Virus record (IMG/VR): IMGVR_UViG_2778261121_000002
Origin: a virus
Lineage: Duplodnaviria > Heunggongvirae > Uroviricota > Caudoviricetes
Direction: 5' to 3' (one strand)
DNA: 8,595 bases
Shown piece after piece: positions 1 through 8,595 of the stretch (position 1 is its first letter; the number at the start of each line of letters is the position of its first letter). The notes beneath the pieces were generated by a model. The model was given only the letters and a program-made list of their open reading frames with translations. It was not told where the DNA came from and did no database searches. The translations under genes were made by a program, and so were the position numbers.

Positions 1-22
1 ACAAATATCTCATCATGTTGTT

Positions 23-838
23 ATGACAAAATCCTCCGTCGGCACAAGAAGAATAAATTCTTTAGTAACACATGCTTACCGCATTAATTCTGTTTATCAA
101 TTATTGGAACATGTAAACAATATCGGCAAAGGTATCTGCGTAACACCTCAAAAAATTGAGAAATCTCATTGGACGCCAATTTATTCAGGAGATAGAAGAA
201 ATCTTGGATATTCGTTTGCCTTTAAAAACAGGCTATCGATAGAGATATTCCTTATTACATTAATTGACTACATAGACTCAGGAAAAATATCCTCGCTAGA
301 GGATTCCAAATATATAACAGAGGACATTAAATATCTTGATCTTCTATACAAAAAAGTCCATCCGACTCAAGAAGAAATCAGCTACGACCTCCAGAGAGAA
401 GAAGTTGAGGAATATATAGAGGGCGAAACAAGATTAATCCAGTCGCAACATCGTAGCCGCGTATCCGGGTTAAGGAATGACGTTCTGGCAAACGCAGACT
501 ACAGGTGTCAATTATGTTGCAGAACGATGTCGGAAATATACGGCAAGGAAATTGACGGCAAAGAAACGAAAACGCTGCTACACGCTCACCACATCGTCCC
601 ACTTTCACAAGGCGAAGATGCACGAAGCGTGAACCCAAAAACAGATCTGATTGCCGTCTGCCCTAGCTGTCACGCAATACTTCACATCAACGGCAACAAG
701 GAAGCTATACCACGCGAGCGATTTTATGAATTGCGCAAAAAAATTGTCGGCAACCTTCAAAAGCAAGAAAACATAGACATAATGAACCTTGCATGTGATG
801 AAATTAGCAAAAAAGAGAAGAACAAAAACGCCAATTAA
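23..838 (+). CDS. HNH-motif nuclease with McrA-like C-terminal domain; N-terminal ~150 aa unassigned; possibly 5'-partial
   Basis: 271-codon ORF. C-terminus reads CQLC...HAHHIVPLS...N...CPSCH, the canonical HNH (Cys-x2-Cys / His-His / Asn / Cys-x2-Cys-His) pattern. The frame is open from position 2 to the first ATG at 23 and no Shine-Dalgarno precedes 23, so the true start may lie upstream of the window. Confidence 0.7.
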   Translation: MTKSSVGTRRINSLVTHAYRINSVYQLLEHVNNIGKGICVTPQKIEKSHWTPIYSGDRRNLGYSFAFKNRLSIEIFLITLIDYIDSGKISSLEDSKYITEDIKYLDLLYKKVHPTQEEISYDLQREEVEEYIEGETRLIQSQHRSRVSGLRNDVLANADYRCQLCCRTMSEIYGKEIDGKETKTLLHAHHIVPLSQGEDARSVNPKTDLIAVCPSCHAILHINGNKEAIPRERFYELRKKIVGNLQKQENIDIMNLACDEISKKEKNKNAN

Positions 839-863
839 CGCTATCTACCTATAAATGTGAAAC

Positions 864-901
864 ATGCCCTCGACAATACCAGAAAGATTTGTCGAGGGCA
901 T
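864..901 (+). other. Perfect 13-bp inverted repeat (stem-loop) downstream of the HNH ORF
   Basis: atgccctcgacaa (864-876), 12-nt loop, ttgtcgagggcat (889-901). No clear U-tract follows, so it may be a weak terminator, RNA-stability hairpin or protein site. Confidence 0.4.
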
Positions 902-1243
902 AGGGCTTTCCCTATGTCTGAACGATTAAATGTTAACAGCAATCAAATATTTTGTATATGTTATTCTTCTGGTGGCACGACAAAATCATCGAACTTATTC
1001 TTTCGTCTCGAAGCAACTTGATTTCTTCTTCTGTTATACATTTGTCATAATCTGTTTGTTCAAAATGGCACAGTGTAACCGCGAATGGATAGCCGCTATT
1101 AACAATGCTAATGAGTATTTTTTATTCACCACATTCTTCATGAAACTTATTCCATAATCAATTTTTGTTGGAATGTACGGTTAGTCTGTCTACGCGTCAT
1201 AGAGATGTATATAATGACCAAAAAAGACTTAAAAAGGTAGACT

Positions 1244-1765
1244 ATGGTTAAAGACATCACCTACGGCATACCGGCTGAAGTATGGCCGCGAAACTACGAA
1301 CATGCTGAACGCACCTTGCTCTTCTGGCGGAGGGCTAAATTTCCTGTAAGAGTCACTCTCGAAGATGGCCAAGTGTTTTGCATGTACGTTTATGGTCTCA
1401 TGTCATCTCGTAACAAAGTTGACCTTTGTCCAACTCCATTTGACAAAGAAAATCGTATAAGGCTCCCACTTGAGCGCATTAGCACAATTGAATCAGGCGT
1501 AATTGATGGCATTGATTACGATTTCAAAGGGAGACTAACAATACACCCTGACTATGTAGACAACCAGCCATCACGTCGTGACTTTTTTAAGATATGTCGC
1601 AAGGCTTATCAAAACGGCCAATCTATAAGGGTCTACATGGCAGATGGCCGCGAAATTGAGGGAACGTCAGATGGCGTTGATGCCTGCCTAGTCACACTTA
1701 AGTTGAAAGACGGCAGAAAAATTCTTGTTTTCTTCGATTGGGTTGAACGAATTTTACCTTTTTGA
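1244..1765 (+). CDS. Hypothetical protein with two tandem Rof/YaeO-like repeats (putative modulator of Rho-dependent termination)
   Basis: 173-codon ORF with RBS aaaggtag 5-6 nt upstream and a TATAAT box at 1210-1215. Internal duplication (VRVTLEDGQ...SSRNKV...RIRLPLERIST versus IRVYMADGRE...VTLKLKDGRKI). The first repeat resembles E. coli Rof as I recall it (LTLELKDGEK...SRKNV...RELRLDKITS); this is from memory, not a search. Confidence 0.7.
   Translation: MVKDITYGIPAEVWPRNYEHAERTLLFWRRAKFPVRVTLEDGQVFCMYVYGLMSSRNKVDLCPTPFDKENRIRLPLERISTIESGVIDGIDYDFKGRLTIHPDYVDNQPSRRDFFKICRKAYQNGQSIRVYMADGREIEGTSDGVDACLVTLKLKDGRKILVFFDWVERILPF
1708..1758. repeat. 51-bp perfect direct repeat, copy 1 (3' end of the 1244-1765 CDS)
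   Basis: agacggcagaaaaattcttgttttcttcgattgggttgaacgaattttacc is identical at 1708-1758 and 2074-2124; flanking bases are also similar. Confidence 0.9.
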
Positions 1766-1768
1766 GTT

Positions 1769-2065
1769 ATGAAATCGATACTATTGACATCATTATTTTT
1801 AGTTTACTCAATTTCAGCCAATGCAAAGGATGATATCGCAATTATTCAGTCGCTGATGAATGACGTATGCTCAACGTCTCAGAATGTACCAGTTTGCATG
1901 TTTAAACTTTCAGCAGCTGTAAAACTAGGGATAAACATTGGTAAGACCGCTCAACTATGTGAACAAGTGGAAAATTATGAACCATGTGAATCGAACAACT
2001 CTTCTGTGCAGTTCGTTGATGCGTTATTTGACACCAATCGTAAGGCTGTAGAGTCAGTCCGATAA
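1769..2065 (+). CDS. Small secreted four-cysteine protein, paralog 1 (98 aa)
   Basis: N-terminal signal-peptide-like segment MKSILLTSLFLVYSISANA with an AxA cleavage motif. Mature part has four Cys in two pairs (C-x8-C ... C-x9-C). ATG lies 3 nt after the upstream stop with no Shine-Dalgarno, suggesting translational coupling. Confidence 0.65.
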   Translation: MKSILLTSLFLVYSISANAKDDIAIIQSLMNDVCSTSQNVPVCMFKLSAAVKLGINIGKTAQLCEQVENYEPCESNNSSVQFVDALFDTNRKAVESVR

Positions 2066-2131
2066 ATGTATGAAGACGGCAGAAAAATTCTTGTTTTCTT
2101 CGATTGGGTTGAACGAATTTTACCGTTTTAG
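2066..2131 (+). pseudogene. 21-codon in-frame remnant duplicating the C-terminus of the 1244-1765 protein
   Basis: ATG directly abuts the stop of the preceding gene (taaATG). Encodes MYEDGRKILVFFDWVERILPF, matching ...KDGRKILVFFDWVERILPF at the end of the 173-aa protein. Contains repeat copy 2. Confidence 0.5.
2074..2124. repeat. 51-bp perfect direct repeat, copy 2
   Basis: Identical to 1708-1758; lies immediately upstream of the second small secreted-protein gene. Confidence 0.9.
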
Positions 2132-2140
2132 GATATTGAT

Positions 2141-2440
2141 ATGAAAACTGTAGCAGCATTCACATTCTTAACTTTCATTTTTAGCTCTTCCGCATTTTCT
2201 CAAGAAAATAGCATTGAACGAGTGCAACGTGTCTCTACAGAGTTGTGTTCAAAGGCGGAAGACTACGATTTGTGCATGTTAGACCTAAGCATGGCTTTAG
2301 GCGCTGCATATCAAGATGGACTGATCGTTGCGGGATGCAAGTTGGGACTTGATGAGCCTTCGAAAGACAAATGCGAAAACTCGGAGCGTTTTCAGGAATA
2401 TATAATAAAAGAAATCAGGAACTATGCAAAAAAGATGTAA
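2141..2440 (+). CDS. Small secreted four-cysteine protein, paralog 2 (99 aa)
   Basis: RBS aggat 6 nt upstream. Signal-peptide-like MKTVAAFTFLTFIFSSSAFS. Four Cys in two pairs (C-x8-C ... C-x11-C), same architecture and size as paralog 1. Confidence 0.7.
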   Translation: MKTVAAFTFLTFIFSSSAFSQENSIERVQRVSTELCSKAEDYDLCMLDLSMALGAAYQDGLIVAGCKLGLDEPSKDKCENSERFQEYIIKEIRNYAKKM

Positions 2441-2453
2441 ATTCCTATAAGGG

Positions 2454-2484
2454 TAATAACCGGCTAAGTCCGGTTATTATTTTA
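2454..2484 (+). terminator. Rho-independent terminator closing the AT-rich cassette
   Basis: 10-bp stem taataaccgg / ccggttatta with loop ctaagt, followed by a T-run (ttttac). Confidence 0.65.
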
Positions 2485-2614
2485 CACGCCATTCATTTAA
2501 TACTCTTTCAATTCTACCCCGTATAAATATATAAGGTTATAAGCCGGAATTAATTATTTATTTAGGGAACACCTTCGACGATCTCGCTTTTATTTCTAGG
2601 ACTTTCATCCCTGC

Positions 2615-2661
2615 AAAAAAAATTAAAAAACGCTTGCAATCTTTTTTCTCATATCGATAAT
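2615..2661 (+). promoter_or_regulatory. Sigma70-type promoter with upstream A-tract
   Basis: A-tract 2615-2630 (aaaaaaaattaaaaaa), -35 TTGCAA (2634-2639), 16-bp spacer, -10 GATAAT (2656-2661). About 60 nt upstream of the 2722 start. Confidence 0.6.
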
Positions 2662-2721
2662 TGGACTCATCGAAAGCGAAATCGCTAACGACAATTAAAT
2701 TTTATACTAAGGATTGAAATC

Positions 2722-3372
2722 ATGGCTAACATTATCATTTCTAAAAAATCCATCATTGAAGCTGCTTCCATTGTATCCGATGAACTGCGCGAAAAAGCAG
2801 ATCTGGCAACTCAAACATATAACGAACATTATAAAAATGGTACGCACACTAAAGCAGACAAAGCAAATATGCAAGCTGCGACCACTAAACTTGCTTACTT
2901 CATCAACAACGTTGTAAACGCTGTAGAAGACGAAAAATTATGCTCTGTTTTCTACTATGCGATTAAAGCAAGCAAACAAGCGCCAGAAGTATTTTTCCGT
3001 GATGCTATGACTAATAGTTATTCACTGGAAAAACTGGTTTATCTGGTTAAATCCATTAAAGCTGGTAAATGTGTTTATTCCGTCGCTGATATGTCTGGAT
3101 CTCGTGTATTCGCTTTAATCGATATGATTAACGACGAGATCGACACGTTCACCAATGGCGCTGTTTTCGACTTAATGAATGAAGCTAAAAAAGCGTGTGA
3201 AATTAAATTGGACGTTGGCTATACTCAAGCCAACCAGTTGATCAATCTTTGCGAACGTCTTGGACTTGTTGAAAAAGTCAAAGGAATGGGAAGCGCCAAA
3301 GCTGGTACACAGCAATATCGCTTTATCAAGAATGATTTCTACAATTATTTAGCTGATGCTTTCAAAGCGTAA
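2722..3372 (+). CDS. Hypothetical protein (216 aa), first gene of a three-gene operon
   Basis: RBS taaggat 7 nt upstream of ATG. Long ORF with non-repetitive composition. No motif recognised by eye. Confidence 0.8.
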   Translation: MANIIISKKSIIEAASIVSDELREKADLATQTYNEHYKNGTHTKADKANMQAATTKLAYFINNVVNAVEDEKLCSVFYYAIKASKQAPEVFFRDAMTNSYSLEKLVYLVKSIKAGKCVYSVADMSGSRVFALIDMINDEIDTFTNGAVFDLMNEAKKACEIKLDVGYTQANQLINLCERLGLVEKVKGMGSAKAGTQQYRFIKNDFYNYLADAFKA

Positions 3373-3385
3373 TTAATGGAATCAT

Positions 3386-3405
3386 GCGCCCACTATGGGC
3401 GCTTT
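3386..3405 (+). promoter_or_regulatory. Intra-operon hairpin (attenuator or RNA-processing candidate)
   Basis: gcgccca-cta-tgggcgc followed by only ttt, then the RBS aaggag. The same 20-mer recurs at 3882-3901 as part of a terminator. Confidence 0.4.
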
Positions 3406-3420
3406 AAAGGAGCTTTAAAA

Positions 3421-3624
3421 ATGGTCAGCTATGACAAGATCCGCGCGGAATATCGCGCAAAGTATCGCGCTTACAAACTGGAATTAATCGATTATTTGAT
3501 CGCGCAACGCGACCAATTAAATTTTACGTTTTCTGATTTGCTTAACAGCAAGCGAGATTGCAAGCGCAAACGTGAATACTTACGTTTAAGCGCATTAATC
3601 GGAAAACTTCAAAATTCTATTTAA
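3421..3624 (+). CDS. Hypothetical small basic protein (67 aa)
   Basis: AAGGAG 8 nt upstream of the ATG at 3421. The longer ORF from 3376 lacks an RBS and overlaps the hairpin. Lys/Arg-rich sequence. Confidence 0.6.
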   Translation: MVSYDKIRAEYRAKYRAYKLELIDYLIAQRDQLNFTFSDLLNSKRDCKRKREYLRLSALIGKLQNSI

Positions 3625-3644
3625 TTTTTTTAAGGAGCTTAATC

Positions 3645-3875
3645 ATGTTTGTTCTTATCGCTGGCGTTAACGTCCATAACGAATATTATGTTAATCGCAT
3701 CGCTGGGATCGCTGGTTACGCTGGGCGCGCAGTCGCGCTTATAGATGAAACGACGCGCAAAATTGACTTATTGAGCGACCAGGAGCGAAAAAAAGCAGAC
3801 GTGAACGACGCTGATATATTTTTAATGTTAAAAGCGTTTGTAGAAATGGGATTTGAAATCAGTTTACATAAATAA
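3645..3875 (+). CDS. Hypothetical protein (76 aa)
   Basis: AAGGAG 7 nt upstream of ATG; followed directly by tandem terminators. Confidence 0.65.
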   Translation: MFVLIAGVNVHNEYYVNRIAGIAGYAGRAVALIDETTRKIDLLSDQERKKADVNDADIFLMLKAFVEMGFEISLHK

Positions 3876-3880
3876 AATCG

Positions 3881-3904
3881 AGCGCCCACTATGGGCGCTT
3901 TTTT
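3881..3904 (+). terminator. Rho-independent terminator 1 of the plus-strand operon
   Basis: 8-bp GC-rich stem agcgccca / tgggcgct with a 3-nt loop, then a run of six T. Confidence 0.75.
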
Positions 3905-3925
3905 CGTTTCCAATACTCCCACCAT

Positions 3926-3951
3926 AACGCGCCAATGATGGCGCGTTTTTT
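3926..3951 (+). terminator. Rho-independent terminator 2 (tandem)
   Basis: 9-bp stem aacgcgcca / tggcgcgtt, loop atga, then ttttttatt. Confidence 0.65.
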
Positions 3952-4053
3952 ATTGTCTTTAACTCACTCCAACAACATAAAAATAAGCGCAAAAAATAAC
4001 GCCATAGACGCGCTTTTATATCCTCGCCAGTATATACCCATTACTTAACATAT

Positions 4054-4074
4054 TAACGCGCTTAAAACGCGTTA
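4054..4074. other. Inverted repeat in structured non-coding region
   Basis: taacgcg (4054-4060), 7-nt loop, cgcgtta (4068-4074). Confidence 0.4.
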
Positions 4075-4123
4075 TATTGCGCTATAGAGTATGGTTAATC
4101 ATTGGCTTTTAGTCTTGCTTTAT

Positions 4124-4151
4124 GATCCGCGTTTATTTGTCGGCGCGGATC
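4124..4151. other. 8-bp inverted repeat carrying two GATC sites
   Basis: gatccgcg (4124-4131), 12 nt, cgcggatc (4144-4151). Confidence 0.45.
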
Positions 4152-4205
4152 GGCATTTCGTTTTGTTCCGTATCCGCTCGCGTATTATGTGCGCGTAATT
4201 TTTCA

Positions 4206-4240
4206 CATAATCACACCACTTAATCACGTATGTGATTATG
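4206..4240. promoter_or_regulatory. 9-bp inverted repeat plus a direct TAATCAC copy (operator-like)
   Basis: cataatcac (4206-4214) and gtgattatg (4232-4240), with a third taatcac at 4221-4227 between them. Confidence 0.4.
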
Positions 4241-4364
4241 CTACGAAAGAAATCTGGATGTCTCAGGTGACGAAAGTCATCATAATTTTCCCCGCTCACC
4301 TGTCCGACAACCGCTGGTTGGATTCCACCAGCTTCCCGATGTTTTTTCTACATAAAGGCGAATG

Positions 4365-4486
4365 CAGCCGTTTCCCGAAAAAATCCTGGCCGTTTCCCGT
4401 CGGCTCATGAATACGTTCCTCGCCGTTTCTGAAAATTTCCCTGCGGCAGCTGGTGGCTATAGAGAAAGGGCCGTTTCTGGCCCTCT
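4365..4486. repeat. Iteron array 1: four direct copies of CCGTTTC(C/T)
   Basis: CCG of each copy starts at 4368, 4390, 4423 and 4471 (spacings 22, 33, 48 bp). Copy 3 reads ccgtttctgaaaatttccc. Confidence 0.6.
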
Positions 4487-4492
4487 TCTCAG

Positions 4493-4975
4493 TTACACGC
4501 CATCAAGGATGTGGATGCGGTTGCTTGCGTATACATTCAGCATAAAGTTAGCGCAAAACAGTTTCCATGTATCAACGCCAGCGGTATACGTAATGTTTTT
4601 GCATTTAATTGCATTGTTGGCGATCCGCATCCCCTGCGATACTGCTTCATCGTCGGAAAATTTGAACGACGATTGAGTTTTAATCCAGACAGAAATCTGC
4701 GTAGCGAACTCAATCAGCTTGGACTGGCAGAATCGCCCGGAGCGCACCGGAAAGACGAACGTTCCGAATCCAGAATTTACCACATATGCTTTCTCAAATA
4801 CCCGCGAGTAACGACGATTGCCAATGATGTCGCGTGCAATAATGCATTTTTCTTGTGCTGACAGTTCTACCGTCTCATTGTCGCGCCATGCACCAAGTAC
4901 TCGTTTTTCAATGTCAGAGAACGTTACAGCGATATTGCCATGTGCGGGTGCGTTTACAGTAGCGATAAAATTCAT
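4493..4975 (-). CDS. Hypothetical protein (160 aa)
   Basis: RBS aagga 7 nt upstream of ATG (minus strand); conserved promoter/leader module A upstream. Confidence 0.75.
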   Translation of the reverse strand: MNFIATVNAPAHGNIAVTFSDIEKRVLGAWRDNETVELSAQEKCIIARDIIGNRRYSRVFEKAYVVNSGFGTFVFPVRSGRFCQSKLIEFATQISVWIKTQSSFKFSDDEAVSQGMRIANNAIKCKNITYTAGVDTWKLFCANFMLNVYASNRIHILDGV

Positions 4976-5049
4976 GATTGATTCCTTATCGTAAATAACA
5001 AATTGTTTTCTTGTTGGTGTTAATTATCGTTGTACGAATAAGGCGTCAA
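4976..5049 (-). promoter_or_regulatory. Conserved promoter/leader module A
   Basis: Minus-strand reading: TTGACG, 15 nt, GATAAT, then TAACACCAACAAGAAAACAATTTGTT..., RBS, ATG. The core GATAAT + 10-11 nt + AGAAAACA is shared with modules B, C and D. Confidence 0.6.
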
Positions 5050-5063
5050 AGTGGAAAGTTACG

Positions 5064-5135
5064 GTAGCCGGACGGGAACAGGTGGGTTTGTCGGTTGCCT
5101 AGAGGTAAGAGGTTGGTGTTTTTAGCCTGCGGGGA
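5064..5135. repeat. Dispersed ~70-bp repeat, copy 1
   Basis: cggtagccgg...aggtgggtttgtcggttgcct...agaggttggtgttttt aligns with cggtagcctg...aggtgggtcttttcggtagcct...agaggttggttgttttt at 8246-8310. Confidence 0.5.
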
Positions 5136-5178
5136 ACAGGATGGTCATTTAAGGCCACCAGCATTGGCAGCCTATATA

Positions 5179-5478
5179 TCATTGCTTTCGATGTGCTGCA
5201 ACGAACTCTTTCAACGTTTCTAGCGCATGATAAAGACCGACGATATTCGAGCCGTAGTCGATGCAAACAGGGGAAAGTGATGTCTTCCCGTCGTGCGATG
5301 AATATGCCGATGTGGTAGTTGCAGGGAAATCGTGGCGATAGCAAACCGCAGTTTTTGGGTGTCGCAGATACGCTATCCCTCTTTCAAGATCATAAATTGC
5401 GCGTCGCAGGTCATGCTCCTGCGCTCTGGTCAATTTTGCCATCGTAATACTCTCACTTAATGCGGCAAAGCCAGCCAT
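5179..5478 (-). CDS. Hypothetical protein (99 aa; alternative start at 5442 gives 87 aa)
   Basis: ORF downstream of the 5525-5716 gene on the same strand, probably co-transcribed. The ATG at 5478 has a poor RBS; the in-frame ATG at 5442 is preceded by gagag. Confidence 0.55.
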   Translation of the reverse strand: MAGFAALSESITMAKLTRAQEHDLRRAIYDLERGIAYLRHPKTAVCYRHDFPATTTSAYSSHDGKTSLSPVCIDYGSNIVGLYHALETLKEFVAAHRKQ

Positions 5479-5524
5479 GATTCAAGGAATACATTTTGTG
5501 CTTTTGGGGTAATGGTGAAATCAG

Positions 5525-5716
5525 TCATCGTGCCCCCATCTCCTGCAACTGTGCAACGGTGATATCTGGACACAGCCCGTCGATCCACACCCACACGTCA
5601 ATGATGCTGTCACCGGCTTCAAAATGGTGAAATGCACGCTCAAGCTGCTGATTGTTATCCACAGGCTCATTTGCTAGCTGCGCCCAGATTTGCTGTACTT
5701 GAGTAATAGTTTTCAT
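5525..5716 (-). CDS. Hypothetical small protein (63 aa)
   Basis: RBS agagga 6 nt upstream of ATG; conserved module B directly upstream. Confidence 0.65.
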   Translation of the reverse strand: MKTITQVQQIWAQLANEPVDNNQQLERAFHHFEAGDSIIDVWVWIDGLCPDITVAQLQEMGAR

Positions 5717-5775
5717 CTGCTTTCCTCTTGTTTTCTTGTTGTTGTAATTATCGCAGTGTAGATAAGGTAGAAAAC
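5717..5775 (-). promoter_or_regulatory. Conserved promoter/leader module B
   Basis: Minus-strand reading: TGcGATAAT (extended -10), then TACAACAACAAGAAAACAAGAGGAAAGCAG, ATG. The -35 is weak. Confidence 0.5.
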
Positions 5776-5789
5776 AAATTGTTATCGGG

Positions 5790-5821
5790 TATAAGAAAAT
5801 GGCGCGGTTTACGCGCCATTT
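5790..5821 (-). terminator. Rho-independent terminator after the 5830-6225 gene
   Basis: 10-bp stem aaatggcgcg / cgcgccattt with loop gttta; on the minus strand it is followed by ttttcttat. Confidence 0.65.
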
Positions 5822-5829
5822 AAAGAGGA

Positions 5830-6225
5830 TTAAGCGAATACGCTTTCAGGGATTAAGGTATCAGCAGGAATGCCGGAGGTAATACGCAGACCGTACTGGC
5901 CAATCCAGGTGGTGCTGGTGTTCAGGCTGGAGGCGAATACGGTGTTAACCATATTCATCATGGTTTCAAACACCTCTTCATCAACCTGGCGGAAGTAGTT
6001 CTCGATTTTCAGCAGCAGCGGGTCAGTTGCATCGAGAATGGACTGGTATTGAGTCGCGTACTCGCCGCCGGAGGCATCACCTTTACGCACGATCGTACTG
6101 GCCTGTACTTCGGCACCAGTTTCGGTGTTGTACGTAACAACGGTGATTTTTGCCACATTCTTACCTTCGGCGGTTTCAGAGGCATAGTAAACATCAACTG
6201 TCAGTTTTTCGCGTTTAACGGTCAT
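5830..6225 (-). CDS. Hypothetical protein (131 aa), stand-alone transcription unit
   Basis: RBS ggag 6 nt upstream of ATG; its own near-consensus promoter upstream and terminators on both sides. Confidence 0.8.
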   Translation of the reverse strand: MTVKREKLTVDVYYASETAEGKNVAKITVVTYNTETGAEVQASTIVRKGDASGGEYATQYQSILDATDPLLLKIENYFRQVDEEVFETMMNMVNTVFASSLNTSTTWIGQYGLRITSGIPADTLIPESVFA

Positions 6226-6257
6226 TTCACTCTCCGTAGTGTATTGGTTATTTTTCT

Positions 6258-6286
6258 ATTCTATGATCGTAAGTATGTACTTACAA
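6258..6286 (-). promoter_or_regulatory. Near-consensus sigma70 promoter with embedded palindrome
   Basis: Minus-strand reading: TTGTAA, 17 nt, TAGAAT. The -35 and spacer contain the inverted repeat gtaagta-ca-tacttac (plus 6269-6284). Confidence 0.65.
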
Positions 6287-6287
6287 T

Positions 6288-6317
6288 ACAAAAAAGCCCC
6301 GTAAGGATGGCGGGGCT
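6288..6317 (-). terminator. Rho-independent terminator after the 6352-6663 gene
   Basis: 7-bp stem agccccg / cggggct with a 9-nt loop; on the minus strand it is followed by ttttttgtatt. Confidence 0.65.
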
Positions 6318-6351
6318 GTCGTACGGTCGACTAATTACCACTTGCACATTA

Positions 6352-6663
6352 TCAGGCTATTGCCATCACTGATGCTCTCTGAATCTCTTGCTGGGCCACG
6401 CGGTTAACTTCCATCAAAGCCAGTTCGAGCTGATGTTCCGGCCACATTCTTTGAAATGCCACCCAGCCTTTTCCACGCTGGCGACGAACATTCATTACAT
6501 AACGAGTAAAGGTGTTTTTATCGAAAGACACCGCTGTTTCACGGAACAGACGAATAGAGGTTCCATTGGCAACGATGTCCAGCAAAGTTAATTGAGCAAC
6601 CAGCGCAGGCTTCTCTTTTCTCTTCTGGTCTTTGTCCAGACCAAGAACCAATGATTTTTTCAT
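6352..6663 (-). CDS. Hypothetical protein (104 aa)
   Basis: Start taken at the ATG preceded by RBS acggag. The upstream in-frame ATG at 6693 lies inside conserved module C and lacks an RBS. Confidence 0.7.
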   Translation of the reverse strand: MKKSLVLGLDKDQKRKEKPALVAQLTLLDIVANGTSIRLFRETAVSFDKNTFTRYVMNVRRQRGKGWVAFQRMWPEHQLELALMEVNRVAQQEIQRASVMAIA

Positions 6664-6728
6664 CACAACTCCGTAAACAACTTGTTTTCTCAATGGCGTA
6701 AATAATACCAGTAAGAAAACGGCTACAA
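6664..6728 (-). promoter_or_regulatory. Conserved promoter/leader module C
   Basis: Minus-strand reading: TTGTAG, 15 nt, TGgTATTAT, then TTACGCCATTGAGAAAACAAGTTGTTTACGGAG..., ATG. Confidence 0.55.
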
Positions 6729-6789
6729 AGCATATTGATCAGGTGCATGAGCGATATGCAGGTTCTTCCCTGCGGCTACAGATTAAGTT

Positions 6790-6808
6790 AAGCCAGCAAT
6801 GCTGGCTT
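6790..6808. other. 8-bp stem hairpin just downstream of the 6818-7147 gene
   Basis: aagccagc-aat-gctggctt. No convincing U-tract on the minus strand, so function is uncertain. Confidence 0.35.
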
Positions 6809-6817
6809 TGGTTGTGA

Positions 6818-7147
6818 TTACGCGAATACCTCAAGAAACTCCTGAACGTCCCAATGCTGGACGAGGTGAAGATAGACCTTAGAAATCACGTCATTTTCGC
6901 TATCGCATGTGAAGTAGTACTTCTGGCTGCGGTTGTATGTGTCCACACAAAATTCGCTCATATCCATAAAGTCAGCATCTTCACCCAGGTCGCTGATCAT
7001 CAAAGCAGGTGCGTCATCACGAGTCATCAGTTCCAGCACCCATCTTGAATTGATCAGAGTGGAAGACCAACCTTCTAACTCATAAAACTGATCAAACTCT
7101 TTTTGAGTTAATTTCTTGATTTGGTTGATGTCGATATTTGTAAACAT
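6818..7147 (-). CDS. Hypothetical strongly acidic protein (109 aa)
   Basis: Start taken at the ATG preceded by aagga + 7 nt. The upstream ATG at 7168 lies inside module D. Hand count: 21 Asp/Glu against 8 Lys/Arg. Confidence 0.7.
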   Translation of the reverse strand: MFTNIDINQIKKLTQKEFDQFYELEGWSSTLINSRWVLELMTRDDAPALMISDLGEDADFMDMSEFCVDTYNRSQKYYFTCDSENDVISKVYLHLVQHWDVQEFLEVFA

Positions 7148-7212
7148 AAAGCAATCCTTAAACAACATGTTTTCTTGATGGTGTTATTATCGCAATAACG
7201 CATAGGCGAAAA
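7148..7212 (-). promoter_or_regulatory. Conserved promoter/leader module D
   Basis: Minus-strand reading: TGcGATAAT, then AACACCATCAAGAAAACATGTTGTTTAAGGATTGCTTT, ATG. Confidence 0.55.
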
Positions 7213-7473
7213 AGGATTTTGTTCCGGTAAATGTGGTTTTGGCAGTGAGTTTTCAGGTTCAGTACCGAGTACACTTTTTACATTATTCTGATTTAGTGGC
7301 CGAAAGTGGCTGGTGGCAGAGTAATCCTCTCCCCAAAAACCTACTGAAATCGATTGTGACCCGTTGGCTGTCTGGCACAATTACGCTGTAGCTGGGCATT
7401 CAGAGGGAATCCAGCGGTAAGCAAGTCCGCCTACGTGAGCGCCTCTCTTCTTCCCGCACATTACAGGTGGGTA

Positions 7474-7646
7474 GCCGCAACTTTCCCTCTCGCTATACCG
7501 GTACGCCACCGTTCCTGAAACGGCATCGAGCCTTCTCCCGAAATCCACACAGGCAACTCGACCGTTTCCCTGAAAATCCCCAGCCGTTCCCCGAAGGCAA
7601 CCCAGCCGTTTCTGTAGCGGGATGCAACCTTTTCCCTGTATGGACG
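7474..7646. repeat. Iteron array 2: about seven direct copies of CCGTTTCCC(T)GAAAA-like units with 22-bp phasing
   Basis: Copies begin near 7476, 7509, 7531, 7562, 7584, 7606 and 7628 (spacings 33, 22, 31, 22, 22, 22), e.g. accgtttccctgaaaatcccc, agccgttccccgaaggc, agccgtttctgtagcgg. Confidence 0.65.
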
Positions 7647-7689
7647 AAGGCTGACCGTAGGGGTGTTACGGGGGATAAAATCAGGAGTT

Positions 7690-7724
7690 GAATAAATACG
7701 AAAAAGGAGGCGACACCCCTCCTT
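7690..7724 (-). terminator. Orphan intrinsic terminator on the minus strand
   Basis: 7-bp stem aaggagg / cctcctt with a 7-nt loop (plus 7704-7724); on the minus strand it is followed by tttcgtatttatt. No credible ORF lies upstream of it. Confidence 0.5.
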
Positions 7725-7756
7725 CCCTCCCCACTTATACATACCTGTCTTGTTCG

Positions 7757-7790
7757 CTATACATGTTGTGTTTTCTTCGTGTTTTATCTG
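7757..7790 (-). promoter_or_regulatory. Degenerate fifth copy (module E) of the conserved promoter/leader motif
   Basis: Minus-strand reading: GATAAA-ACACGA-AGAAAACA-CAACATG. It shares the AGAAAACA core but has different spacing and no downstream gene. Confidence 0.3.
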
Positions 7791-8245
7791 TTTCAACCTC
7801 TCTATAGGCGTTAATGCTCACTCCTTCCAGAACGTTCTATACGGCGACTATTTCTGTTGGTGAATTGGGTGTGTTGTTTCCCTGTCGGTGTATGTGGTTT
7901 CGTTAGTTTTGCGGTGGTTCTTCTATGGGGTGTTCTCGTCGTTTTGGTGATTGTTCTTCTCCGTGTATGGAGTAATAGCAGGTGGGCGATTGCTTTCGTT
8001 ATTGTGTTTGAGTTGTTTGACTGGAGTGTGTGGAAGGCTTTTGTAGTTATTCGTGTATTGGGTAATGGCATTTCCCGTGATTGTTATGTTTCGTGTCTTT
8101 TGGGATTGAGAGAAGCCTTGCGGTTACAGGCTTCGTTGGGGTTTCAGCGGTTCAGGTGTTTCTTCGCTGTTTGGGTAATGGCGTGTCGTGGGTATCGCGC
8201 GTATGAATGTTTTCGGATTGCCTGTGAAAGTTAGGTTGGTTGTCC

Positions 8246-8310
8246 GGTAGCCTGGGGAGAAGAGGTGGGTCTTTTCGGTAGCCTGCCATAAAGAGGTTGG
8301 TTGTTTTTGG
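8246..8310. repeat. Dispersed ~70-bp repeat, copy 2 (internal sub-repeat cggtagcctg twice)
   Basis: Aligns with 5064-5135; see copy 1. Confidence 0.5.
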
Positions 8311-8322
8311 AAATAGCATTTG

Positions 8323-8339
8323 TGTTATTTAGTTGTTTT
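8323..8339. repeat. 17-bp direct repeat tgttatttagttgtttt (second copy at 8554-8570)
   Basis: Identical 17-mer at both positions with similar flanks (ttat follows both). Confidence 0.45.
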
Positions 8340-8500
8340 GTTATGCCTGAAAATAAGTTGTTTATACGGTTGTGTAACGCAACGGGAGCGATTTTGAGCG
8401 TGTGTTTTTGTTGGTAGTGTGTTGGGTCGTCTGTGGTGAAAATTGGACGCTGTGGCGCTGTCTGCTGCGTAGAGTTACGGGTATAAGAAATGATGTGTGA

Positions 8501-8545
8501 AAACGTCAATTTTTTAGACCAAATCGGGTGAAAGCGTTGACGTTT
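8501..8545. other. 9-bp inverted repeat aaacgtcaa / ttgacgttt separated by 27 bp
   Basis: Perfect inverted repeat. The loop is too long for a typical terminator, so it is more likely a protein-binding dyad. Confidence 0.4.
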
Positions 8546-8595
8546 CGTTGATCTGTTATTTAGTTGTTTTCTTATTTGTATAAACAACCATAACC

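Follow-up and report, generated by a model that had tools for sequence, protein, structure and literature searches.

The right-hand tail of an 8,595-nt stretch of viral DNA (IMG/VR record IMGVR_UViG_2778261121_000002; this whole analysed stretch is referred to below as the window) carries a block of about 750 bp with an extreme excess of G and T on its plus strand. We conclude with high confidence that the block is a real and conserved feature, unique in its replicon, that it is non-coding and unstructured, and that its composition is under selection. The window belongs to a phage-plasmid of the SSU5/pHCM2 type, and the analysis suggests, albeit tentatively, that the block acts in this element as a long entry and termination zone for the transcription terminator Rho or as an insulating leader. 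An earlier note on this DNA had described a non-coding tail of exceptional asymmetry with artefactual open reading frames (ORFs) and leftward activity, all of which found support; its proposals of a genome terminus, a transfer zone or a structured RNA did not.

A unique keto-skewed block in SSU5/pHCM2-type phage-plasmids

The plus strand of positions 7800-8595 has a G+T fraction of 0.692 as compared with 0.495 over positions 1-7740, so that the skew indeed lies far beyond the rest of the window. The value of ~80% G+T given earlier for this tail is correct as a peak of 100-nt windows (82% at 7851-7950, with a range of 0.66-0.82 in the block) but not as a mean (69.2%). The GC skew of the block is +0.34 to +0.46 and its AT skew -0.25 to -0.54, with a GC content of 43-47% in this region; the skew sets in abruptly at ~7850 and extends to ~8579. 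The closest complete plasmid, NZ_CP082122 (108,374 bp, 97.6% identical), was used as the reference for replicon-wide statistics. In its 500-bp windows the mean G+T fraction is 0.500 (standard deviation 0.034), the block reaches 0.742 (~7 standard deviations above the mean) and the highest window elsewhere is 0.592. The sliding analysis over the whole replicon that the earlier note had called for thus confines the skew to the block, as a local and unique feature that is not spread over tens of kb.

For the final 1.2 kb of the window, the matches at 93-98% identity comprise 222 plasmids, mostly of ~105-115 kb, typed as 'IncFIB', non-mobilizable and found in E. coli and Shigella; the phages Cyrano, CMS-2020a and PhiR41_1 match as well. 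A less stringent search finds the block in 839 plasmid records (PLSDB) from Klebsiella, Escherichia, Enterobacter, Salmonella, Citrobacter and Cronobacter and in 12 phage records, including phage SSU5 itself at ~69% identity. These combined plasmid and phage matches assign the window to the SSU5/pHCM2 type. Among complete E. coli genomes the block is present in 246 out of 5,426 (4.5%), every time on a plasmid. Phage-plasmids of this type are common in clinical Enterobacteriaceae, and they carry resistance and other cargo genes at a hot spot that adjoins the block.

In NZ_CP082122 the block falls in a gap of ~1.55 kb in the gene calls of the Prokaryotic Genome Annotation Pipeline (PGAP), which extends from the minus-strand gene at window positions 6818-7147 to the next minus-strand gene, ending ~100 bp beyond the window end. 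No PGAP coding sequence underlies the block in any of the inspected RefSeq matches, and we found no description of it in Rfam, in RefSeq annotation or in the literature found on SSU5, pHCM2 and phage-plasmids.

The block encodes neither a conserved protein nor a structured RNA

A six-frame ORF comparison combined with an assessment of start and stop conservation for small ORFs revealed no conserved frame and no conserved start/stop pair in the block. Indels between lineages include lengths of 1, 8, 11 and 15 nt, hence not multiples of three, and stop codons break every frame in most lineages. The period-3 peak in the periodicity spectrum is no taller than many other peaks. The plus-strand, TTG-initiated ORF of 125 aa (7857-8234) and the minus-strand ORFs are absent as conserved frames from the other lineages. 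The scarcity of stop codons in DNA of such composition leaves long open frames on both strands, which vary between lineages, and the TTG-initiated ORFs are, as suspected in the earlier note, a product of this composition. A conserved coding gene or a skew continuing over tens of kb, either of which that note had named as evidence against its view of the tail, was not found.

The search with Rfam covariance models gave no match in 7400-8595 even at E ≤ 1, and none in the SSU5, Klebsiella and Cronobacter loci at E ≤ 0.1. The minimum free energy of the minus-sense RNA is -127 kcal/mol over 781 nt (z = -1.3 versus shuffled sequences), and the plus-sense RNA has z = +0.3. A sliding RNAalifold analysis of nine lineages against column shuffles yielded minus-sense consensus energies of only 0 to -9 kcal/mol per 160 nt. 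One of the 34 window/strand tests fell at z < -3 (8311-8452, minus strand, z = -3.2), while the core remained at z > -2 on both strands; neither covariation nor a conserved consensus structure gave a signal on either strand of the core. The earlier suggestion of a long structured non-coding RNA therefore finds no support in these results.

Selection acts on base composition

The homologue set comprised 43 regions (annotated plasmids and phages, 39 IMG/VR contigs, and Kluyvera and Buttiauxella genomes) representing seven lineages with pairwise identity down to 53-76%. In all 43 regions, G+T makes up 64-74% of the 650 bp on the left side of a conserved anchor. Comparison of the E. coli, SSU5 and Klebsiella lineages gives an identity of 62-73% for the block, as against 30-44% at third codon positions and 50-83% at first and second positions of two neighbouring conserved genes. 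Constraint on the block is thus about equal to that on protein-coding sequence, and the block is conserved as well as the neighbouring proteins.

Within the three well-sampled lineages, changes from G or T to A or C outnumber the opposite changes by 134 to 70 (p = 9e-6), while the left flank, taken as a control, shows no such imbalance (56 versus 43); the per-site rates in the two directions are similar. Among the differences fixed between lineages, G↔T exchanges are the commonest class (29-35%), as compared with 16% of polymorphisms (Fisher p = 1e-4 and 2e-3) and with 6-10% in the left flank. The G+T content is 75% in invariant columns of the alignment and 59.5% in variable ones. Since polymorphism erodes the skew, all lineages nevertheless retain it and G↔T exchanges are preferentially fixed, the keto (G+T) composition is under selection. 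These observations indicate purifying selection against A and C on the plus strand, where G and T can partly replace each other. A complementary strand, or an RNA, composed of C and A and incapable of pairing with itself would be the simplest trait to fit this pattern.

A keto skew is also the classical sign of deamination in single-stranded DNA. A mutational footprint, in which the plus strand would often be displaced and single-stranded and would gather C→T and A→G deaminations in the manner of the vertebrate mitochondrial H strand, would agree with the sharp left edge of the skew. In fact, the polarity of the block (G over C and T over A on one strand) is that of leading strands and of the H strand. 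The substitution data make this origin extremely improbable: C>T changes on the plus strand (0.03-0.12 per site) are not in excess of G>A changes (0.09-0.14), new mutations reduce a skew that is stable between lineages, AC→GT and GT→AC rates are alike, and the skew is strongest in invariant columns. In addition, the block differs from the keto skews caused by replication or transcription in that it is only 750 bp long, far stronger and mostly located at conserved positions, and its polymorphism spectrum gives such an origin no support. The deamination footprint is largely refuted by these observations.

The block is probably transcribed leftward

Leftward transcription through and out of the block is the most likely activity of this region, and we consider it probable: the orientation of the adjoining cargo genes, the promoter/operator modules and a hairpin terminator, as three independent lines, all agree with the leftward transcription that the earlier note had implied. 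The features on which this and the following sections draw are given below in window coordinates (those of the block itself were converted from plasmid coordinates and may be a few bases off).

7159-7173, minus strand: phage-wide operator of the next leftward promoter (-10 hexamer GATAAT at ~7186-7191), which drives the gene 6818-7147
7309-7316, plus strand: Chi site GCTGGTGG, conserved in most lineages
7509-7641, no strand assigned: flanking array of about six GCCGTTTCCC-type repeats with ~22-bp spacing, C-rich on the plus strand
7701-7727, minus strand: hairpin with U-tract resembling an intrinsic terminator (10-bp stem, then TTTTT), at the left-hand end of the block
7822-8579, minus strand: keto-skewed non-coding block (plus strand G+T-rich), a 758-nt run of elevated C/G
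7957-7984, no strand assigned: 28-nt repeat TTCTYCGTGTATGGRGTAATGGC, copy 1, core GAGTAATAGC (repeat family D2)
8047-8074, no strand assigned: 28-nt repeat, copy 2, core GGGTAATGGC
8160-8187, no strand assigned: 28-nt repeat, copy 3, core GGGTAATGGC
8245-8306, no strand assigned: two tandem 31-bp units CGGTAGCCTG-N8-AGGTKGGT, near-invariant in all lineages (D3)
8323-8344, minus strand: half-operator repeat D4a, minus-sense ATAACAAAACAACTAAATAACA
8350-8364, minus strand: copy of the phage-wide palindromic operator, AAAATAAGTTGTTTA (SSU5: AAAACAACTTGTTTA), conserved in all lineages
8372-8377, minus strand: -10-like hexamer TTACAC (SSU5: TATATT), weak and variable, 7 nt upstream of the operator
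8375-8390, no strand assigned: TAACGCAACGGGAGCG, near-invariant in the lineage alignment
8480-8509, minus strand: leftward promoter-like TTGACG-N18-TATACC, hexamers present in 9 of 9 lineages with a varying spacer
8499-8546, no strand assigned: conserved inverted repeat GAAAACGTCAA-N27-TTGACGTTTC, the arms of which bear two back-to-back -35-like hexamers
8537-8564, plus strand: rightward promoter-like TTGACG-N16-TTTAGT (SSU5: TTGACA-N16-TTTATT)
8554-8575, minus strand: half-operator repeat D4b; its context shares 92% identity with the plasmid's own nrdB promoter/operator module

In 30 out of 34 loci, the nearest ORF on the right side of the block lies on the minus strand, the remaining four being GTG-initiated and probably spurious. 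These 30 minus-strand cargo ORFs represent at least nine unrelated families, and all stop at a conserved junction, 100-150 bp away from the block. The arrival of unrelated minus-strand families at one and the same junction points to a hot spot for cargo whose transcription is always directed into the block. The junction (GGCGATCAACGG...GTGACCGCCAATGTCAAC; seen at positions 10250-10300 of locus L001 and 3390-3424 of locus L003) is the left edge of this hot spot and is located ~100-150 bp to the right of the window end. Further right of it, the E. coli plasmid carries metG, a DUF5983 gene and type I restriction-modification genes.

A 15-bp palindrome, (T/A)AAACAAnTTGTTTT, recurs throughout the phage-plasmid, with 12 copies at no more than one mismatch in NZ_CP082122 (0.05 expected) and 12-18 sites in all across this plasmid. 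Nearly all copies are located 6-12 nt past a -10-like hexamer and 10-40 nt ahead of a minus-strand start codon; the genes that bear them include those of a DnaB-like helicase, nrdB, a ParA-like protein and a gene beside the large terminase. Five copies occur in the window (0.24 expected), at 4995-5009, 5771-5785, 6674-6688, 7159-7173 and 8350-8364. The copy at 8350-8364, inside the block, shares the leftward layout of the others, which precede at least 12 minus-strand genes, yet it is followed by neither a Shine-Dalgarno sequence nor a conserved ORF. The palindrome (AAAACAAnTTGTTTT operator) probably serves a master regulator of the element as its operator, and it appears to be undescribed.

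At the leftward end of the block, the minus-strand terminator that the earlier note had placed at 7690-7724 was confirmed as a terminator-like hairpin, now positioned at 7727-7701, and a hairpin occupies this site in 8 of 9 lineage representatives. Among the promoter-like modules, TTGACG-N18-TATACC is the sole sigma-70-like arrangement kept in 9 of 9 lineages.

A possible Rho-entry zone or insulating leader

Read leftward, the block would yield an RNA of ~40% A, 33% C, 15% U and 12% G. As the plus strand is G+T-rich, this RNA would be C/A-rich and essentially unable to fold. The ratio of C to G in the minus-sense RNA exceeds 1.5 in every 78-nt window along 758 nt (73761-74518 of the plasmid; median 2.55), while no other run of this kind in the replicon, whichever the strand, is longer than 251 nt; in 9 lineages the ratio is 1.6-2.4. 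An untranslated, unstructured, C-rich and G-poor RNA is the textbook loading substrate of Rho (Rho utilization, or rut, site), and the minus-sense RNA of the block displays these features, being C-rich and G-poor over more than the ~80 nt required, low in structure and devoid of a conserved ORF. This combination favours a Rho-entry zone. We tentatively propose, from sequence features, that the block serves as a long Rho-entry and termination zone or as an insulating leader, an interpretation that we place ahead of the others while holding it open to doubt.

Leftward RNA would reach the block from two sources, namely read-through of the variable cargo genes pointing into it and the block's own operator-bearing promoter-like modules (at ~8575, 8480-8509 and 8350-8377). 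Rho would load on this untranslated and structure-free RNA, with the hairpin terminator at 7701-7727 as a back-up. Leftward transcripts would be stopped and rapidly cleared before they reach the iteron-bearing array (7509-7641) and the operator-controlled, repressed early operon. As a result, the regulated genes of the phage would be insulated from a cargo hot spot that is active in the lysogen.

Published transcriptome sequencing (RNA-seq) of Cyrano in E. coli LF82 is relevant here: the cargo gene CYRAN_102 reaches up to ~590 fragments per kilobase per million mapped fragments (FPKM), whereas CYRAN_103, the ORF that follows on this strand (window 8231-8587), shows 0 FPKM in LB and at most ~14 FPKM elsewhere (PMC9928086 S1 Table), although the table holds no value for the central part of the block (7745-8231) and the strandedness of the library was unchecked. 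This drop across the junction, from ~590 to ~2 FPKM (0-14 FPKM over the conditions), suggests that transcripts may be lost right at the start of the block, where no canonical intrinsic terminator is located. The quick degradation of an unstructured RNA 3' end would fit with the zero read count.

Besides the gap in the RNA-seq table, several observations weigh against the Rho interpretation. The near-zero signal suits a silent DNA element and termination followed by decay equally. The U-tract of the terminator is good only in some lineages and missing in several, the internal -10 elements are weak or variable, and a scan for consensus sigma-70 promoters found none. A Rho-loading site requires only ~80 nt and little sequence conservation, and we know of no requirement of Rho for A-richness. 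The length of 750 nt, the A-richness and the near-invariant motifs are thus not explained by Rho alone, and this insufficiency suggests that putative binding sites for one or more proteins are probably present as well.

The same balance emerges from a comparison with known systems. Like the rut regions of lambda tR1 and trp t', the block would give an untranslated, C-rich, G-poor and poorly structured RNA, and like Rho-dependent terminators, including those involved in Rho silencing of horizontally acquired DNA, it is located directly downstream of expressed genes and coincides with an abrupt loss of signal. Unlike rut regions, it is about ten times longer than needed, A-rich, conserved in sequence and furnished with repeats and operator/promoter modules. 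Termination within a leader is the control point of immunity systems that use leader RNAs in other phage-plasmids and satellites (P1 c4, P4 CI RNA and N15 CA RNA), with which the block would share a non-coding leader, repressor/operator control and residence in a plasmid prophage. On the other hand, these RNAs are small, processed and structured, with complementary repeats, whereas the block has no conserved structure and almost no internal complementarity.

If the block is indeed an insulator or an origin leader set between expressed cargo and a repressed lytic programme, prophage stability and the safe uptake of new cargo would both be controlled at this point. In either capacity it would provide a clear natural example of selection on composition rather than on fold or code.

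Repeats and conserved motifs within the block

The earlier observation of repeats in the tail proved genuine, and they are conserved across lineages. Three clear GTAATGGC copies are present in the window, while SSU5-type lineages have six co-oriented GTAATGG cores; the lineage alignment contains a near-invariant island, GTGTATGGAGTAATGGCAGGTG, besides further co-oriented GTAATGGC cores. The motif spacings (41-142 bp) show no helical phasing. The right-hand 100 bp of the block, including the inverted repeat GAAAACGTCAA / TTGACGTTTC, are near-invariant between lineages. We consider the repeats (GTAATGGC cores and tandem 31-mers) to be probably additional protein-binding sites.

The tandem 31-bp repeat has a paralogue at ~5063-5125 (E = 1e-7), just upstream of the promoter/operator of the gene 4493-4975. 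Its core CGGTAGCCTG agrees at 10 of 12 positions with the RfaH ops element; a role as ops was rejected, as the element is on the plus strand but only minus-strand genes are located downstream.

A possible leader of an R-loop origin

A second interpretation, which we regard as rather unlikely although worth weighing in detail, is based on the sequence context to the left of the block. The leftward RNA could be the pre-primer, or activating transcript, of a lytic origin of the R-loop type, in the manner of ColE1 RNA II or of T4 oriF and oriG. In such a model, a repressor-controlled leftward promoter would be followed by a G-poor, inert leader of ~650-770 nt and then by the iteron zone (~7360-7700), over which the RNA would become G-rich, form a persistent hybrid and be processed into a primer. 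Nearest-neighbour energies are in line with this model: the minus-sense RNA:DNA hybrid has -0.13 to -0.18 kcal/mol/bp over the iteron zone. Owing to its C-rich plus strand, this zone favours a hybrid with leftward RNA more than any other 200-300 bp of the plasmid, and the same holds for 5 of 6 lineages. The block itself is mildly favourable for a minus-sense and unfavourable for a plus-sense hybrid; an R-loop with the plus-sense, G/U-rich RNA was rejected on these grounds (+0.02 to +0.10 kcal/mol/bp).

Iteron-like repeats with a 22-bp spacing, found in two paralogous arrays, and the leftward orientation of the promoter/operator modules would also suit an R-loop origin. So would the T4-like replication and recombination set encoded by the phage-plasmid, which includes RNase HI, a UvsW-like helicase, a gp32-family single-strand-binding protein, RecA, primase, a DnaB-like helicase and DnaE, as well as a ligase. 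Like ColE1 RNA II and the T4 origins oriF (uvsY) and oriG, the region presents a promoter-like site, several hundred nt of non-coding sequence and then a hybrid-favouring zone, and like elements with T4-type R-loop origins it encodes both RNase HI and a UvsW-like helicase. What speaks against this model is the hairpin terminator between the leader and the hybrid zone, the lack of an AT-rich unwinding element and of a DnaA box, and the fact that it leaves the conservation and repeats within the block without a reason. Moreover, ColE1 RNA II has extensive structure and is under antisense-RNA control, in contrast to the leader here, which is selected to be structure-free.

The second GCCGTTTCCC-type array is located at 4367-4480 (4 copies, ~22-bp spacing). 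Both arrays are found at the leftward end of a transcription unit beside a Chi site, they are more prone to R-loops with leftward RNA than any other stretch, and they are candidates for a lytic origin or a cis-acting replication region. The window has four Chi sites (0.15 expected) at 4325-4332 (minus strand), 4449-4456 (plus), 5155-5162 (minus) and 7309-7316 (plus), out of twenty in the 108-kb plasmid.

A possible nucleoprotein site at the DNA level

A similarly low probability is assigned to the view, again derived from motif content, that the block functions as double-stranded DNA, for instance in regulation or immunity, as a hot spot of recombination or cargo exchange, or as a partition-like array. 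In that case, many G/T-rich protein-binding motifs packed in one orientation would produce the skew. This would account for the 3-6 co-oriented GTAATGGC cores, for the tandem 31-mers with their paralogue just upstream of another promoter, and for the block's operator, its half-operators and the inverted repeat whose arms bear back-to-back -35-like hexamers. Little or no RNA signal in lysogens, the maximum of skew in invariant columns and the vicinity of the cargo junction and Chi sites point in the same direction. However, G+T still makes up 59.5% of the variable columns and fixation favours G↔T exchanges, which argues for composition rather than motifs as the conserved trait; the irregular motif spacing gives no sign of a helical phase. 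To our knowledge, no mechanism of double-strand binding requires strand asymmetry over 750 bp.

A hypothetical sponge or decoy RNA

Still less probable is an abundant, early, unstructured C/A-rich RNA that would titrate a single-strand RNA-binding factor during lytic growth, the targets considered being Rho, a host defence sensor and the element's own FljA-like RNA-binding protein, whose gene is located within the window. Promoter-like modules and the terminator would delimit a discrete RNA of ~0.65-0.85 kb with short motifs repeated in an unstructured context, a design reminiscent of the long non-coding sponges CsrB/RsmZ and CrcZ, with their short motifs repeated in single-stranded sequence. 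Unlike in these RNAs, the motifs of CsrA (GGA) and Hfq (ARN, AAnAAnAA), as well as those of the CrcZ type, are not above the expectation from composition, so that a sponge for Hfq or CsrA, or one of the CrcZ type, was rejected. We know of no binder of the repeated core in its minus sense, GCCAUUAC. The RNA was not detected in the available RNA-seq data, and it has no significant complementarity to ribosomal RNA, to the plasmid itself or to any E. coli chromosome.

Antisense functions fared no better. The best match to ribosomal RNA (22 bits) equals the mean of shuffled sequences, the likeness of 16S 'GGGTAACGGC' to the repeat core is at chance level, no chromosomal match was found among 5,426 E. 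coli genomes at E ≤ 1, and reverse-strand matches of the block within the plasmid gave nothing significant. A decoy for the FljA-like protein was likewise rejected, as the fliC 5' untranslated region shares only a 9-mer, ACCCAATAC, with one repeat copy.

Taken together, an early, structure-free, C/A-rich phage RNA of ~0.7 kb, acting either as the leader or pre-primer of an R-loop origin or as a decoy for Rho or another reader of single-stranded RNA, is a possibility to which we give limited credence. It is equally doubtful, though conceivable, that selection in such an RNA acts on the absence of G and U and not on a fold, or that this would be a kind of RNA previously undescribed in phage.

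Genome ends, transfer and plasmid origins

The remaining explanations (a physical genome end or packaging site, an origin of transfer or single-strand initiation site, a protein-coding gene, or a structured non-coding RNA) have in their favour only the odd composition, the repeats and the long open frames, and we judge them highly improbable. More than 200 circular plasmids, as well as the phage records of Cyrano, SSU5 and PhiR41_1, carry the block internally, with the terminase genes ~13 kb away, at variance with the terminus or packaging region proposed in the earlier note. The proposed initiation zone of transferred DNA is opposed by plasmid typing (811 of the 839 plasmids are non-mobilizable, and no relaxase is annotated). 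Single-strand hairpins beyond chance are found on neither DNA strand, the folding energies being -29 to -37 kcal/mol (z = -0.55 and -0.78) as against -87 kcal/mol for an ordinary control stretch from elsewhere in the window. A coding gene and a structured RNA conflict with the ORF, indel, Rfam and folding results presented above.

An iteron-type plasmid origin (oriV) was rejected as well: the RepB-family initiator gene (plasmid positions 1-1095) is located ~35 kb from the block round the circle, no AT-rich unwinding element accompanies its GC content of 43-47%, and no DnaA box was found in the block. According to the established polarity of RecBCD, the Chi site at 7309 has the wrong orientation to preserve the G+T strand as a 3' tail, which led us to discard a role in Chi-dependent RecA loading.

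Other features of the window

A PDB sequence search with three neighbouring small proteins returned nothing usable. At the left window edge, an HNH endonuclease gene (23-838, plus strand; Pfam HNH and several PHROG HNH families) may be a mobile insertion, as the reference plasmid has different small genes at this place. Two back-to-back terminator hairpins (3888-3954) separate convergent gene blocks, and they give a sub-threshold Rfam match to the small RNA Hrs1 (32 bits versus a gathering score of 56) that is most likely due to chance. Two adjacent plus-strand ORFs of ~98 aa each (1769-2065 and 2141-2440) contain several cysteines and have N-termini resembling signal peptides (MKSILLTSLFLVYSISANA and MKTVAAFTFLTFIFSSSAFS); they may encode paralogous secreted proteins. 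Finally, positions 1244-1765 (plus strand) encode a full-length homologue of FljA (Pfam Flag1_repress, E = 2e-79), the post-transcriptional repressor of phase-1 flagellin, which suggests that the phage-plasmid may silence the host fliC.

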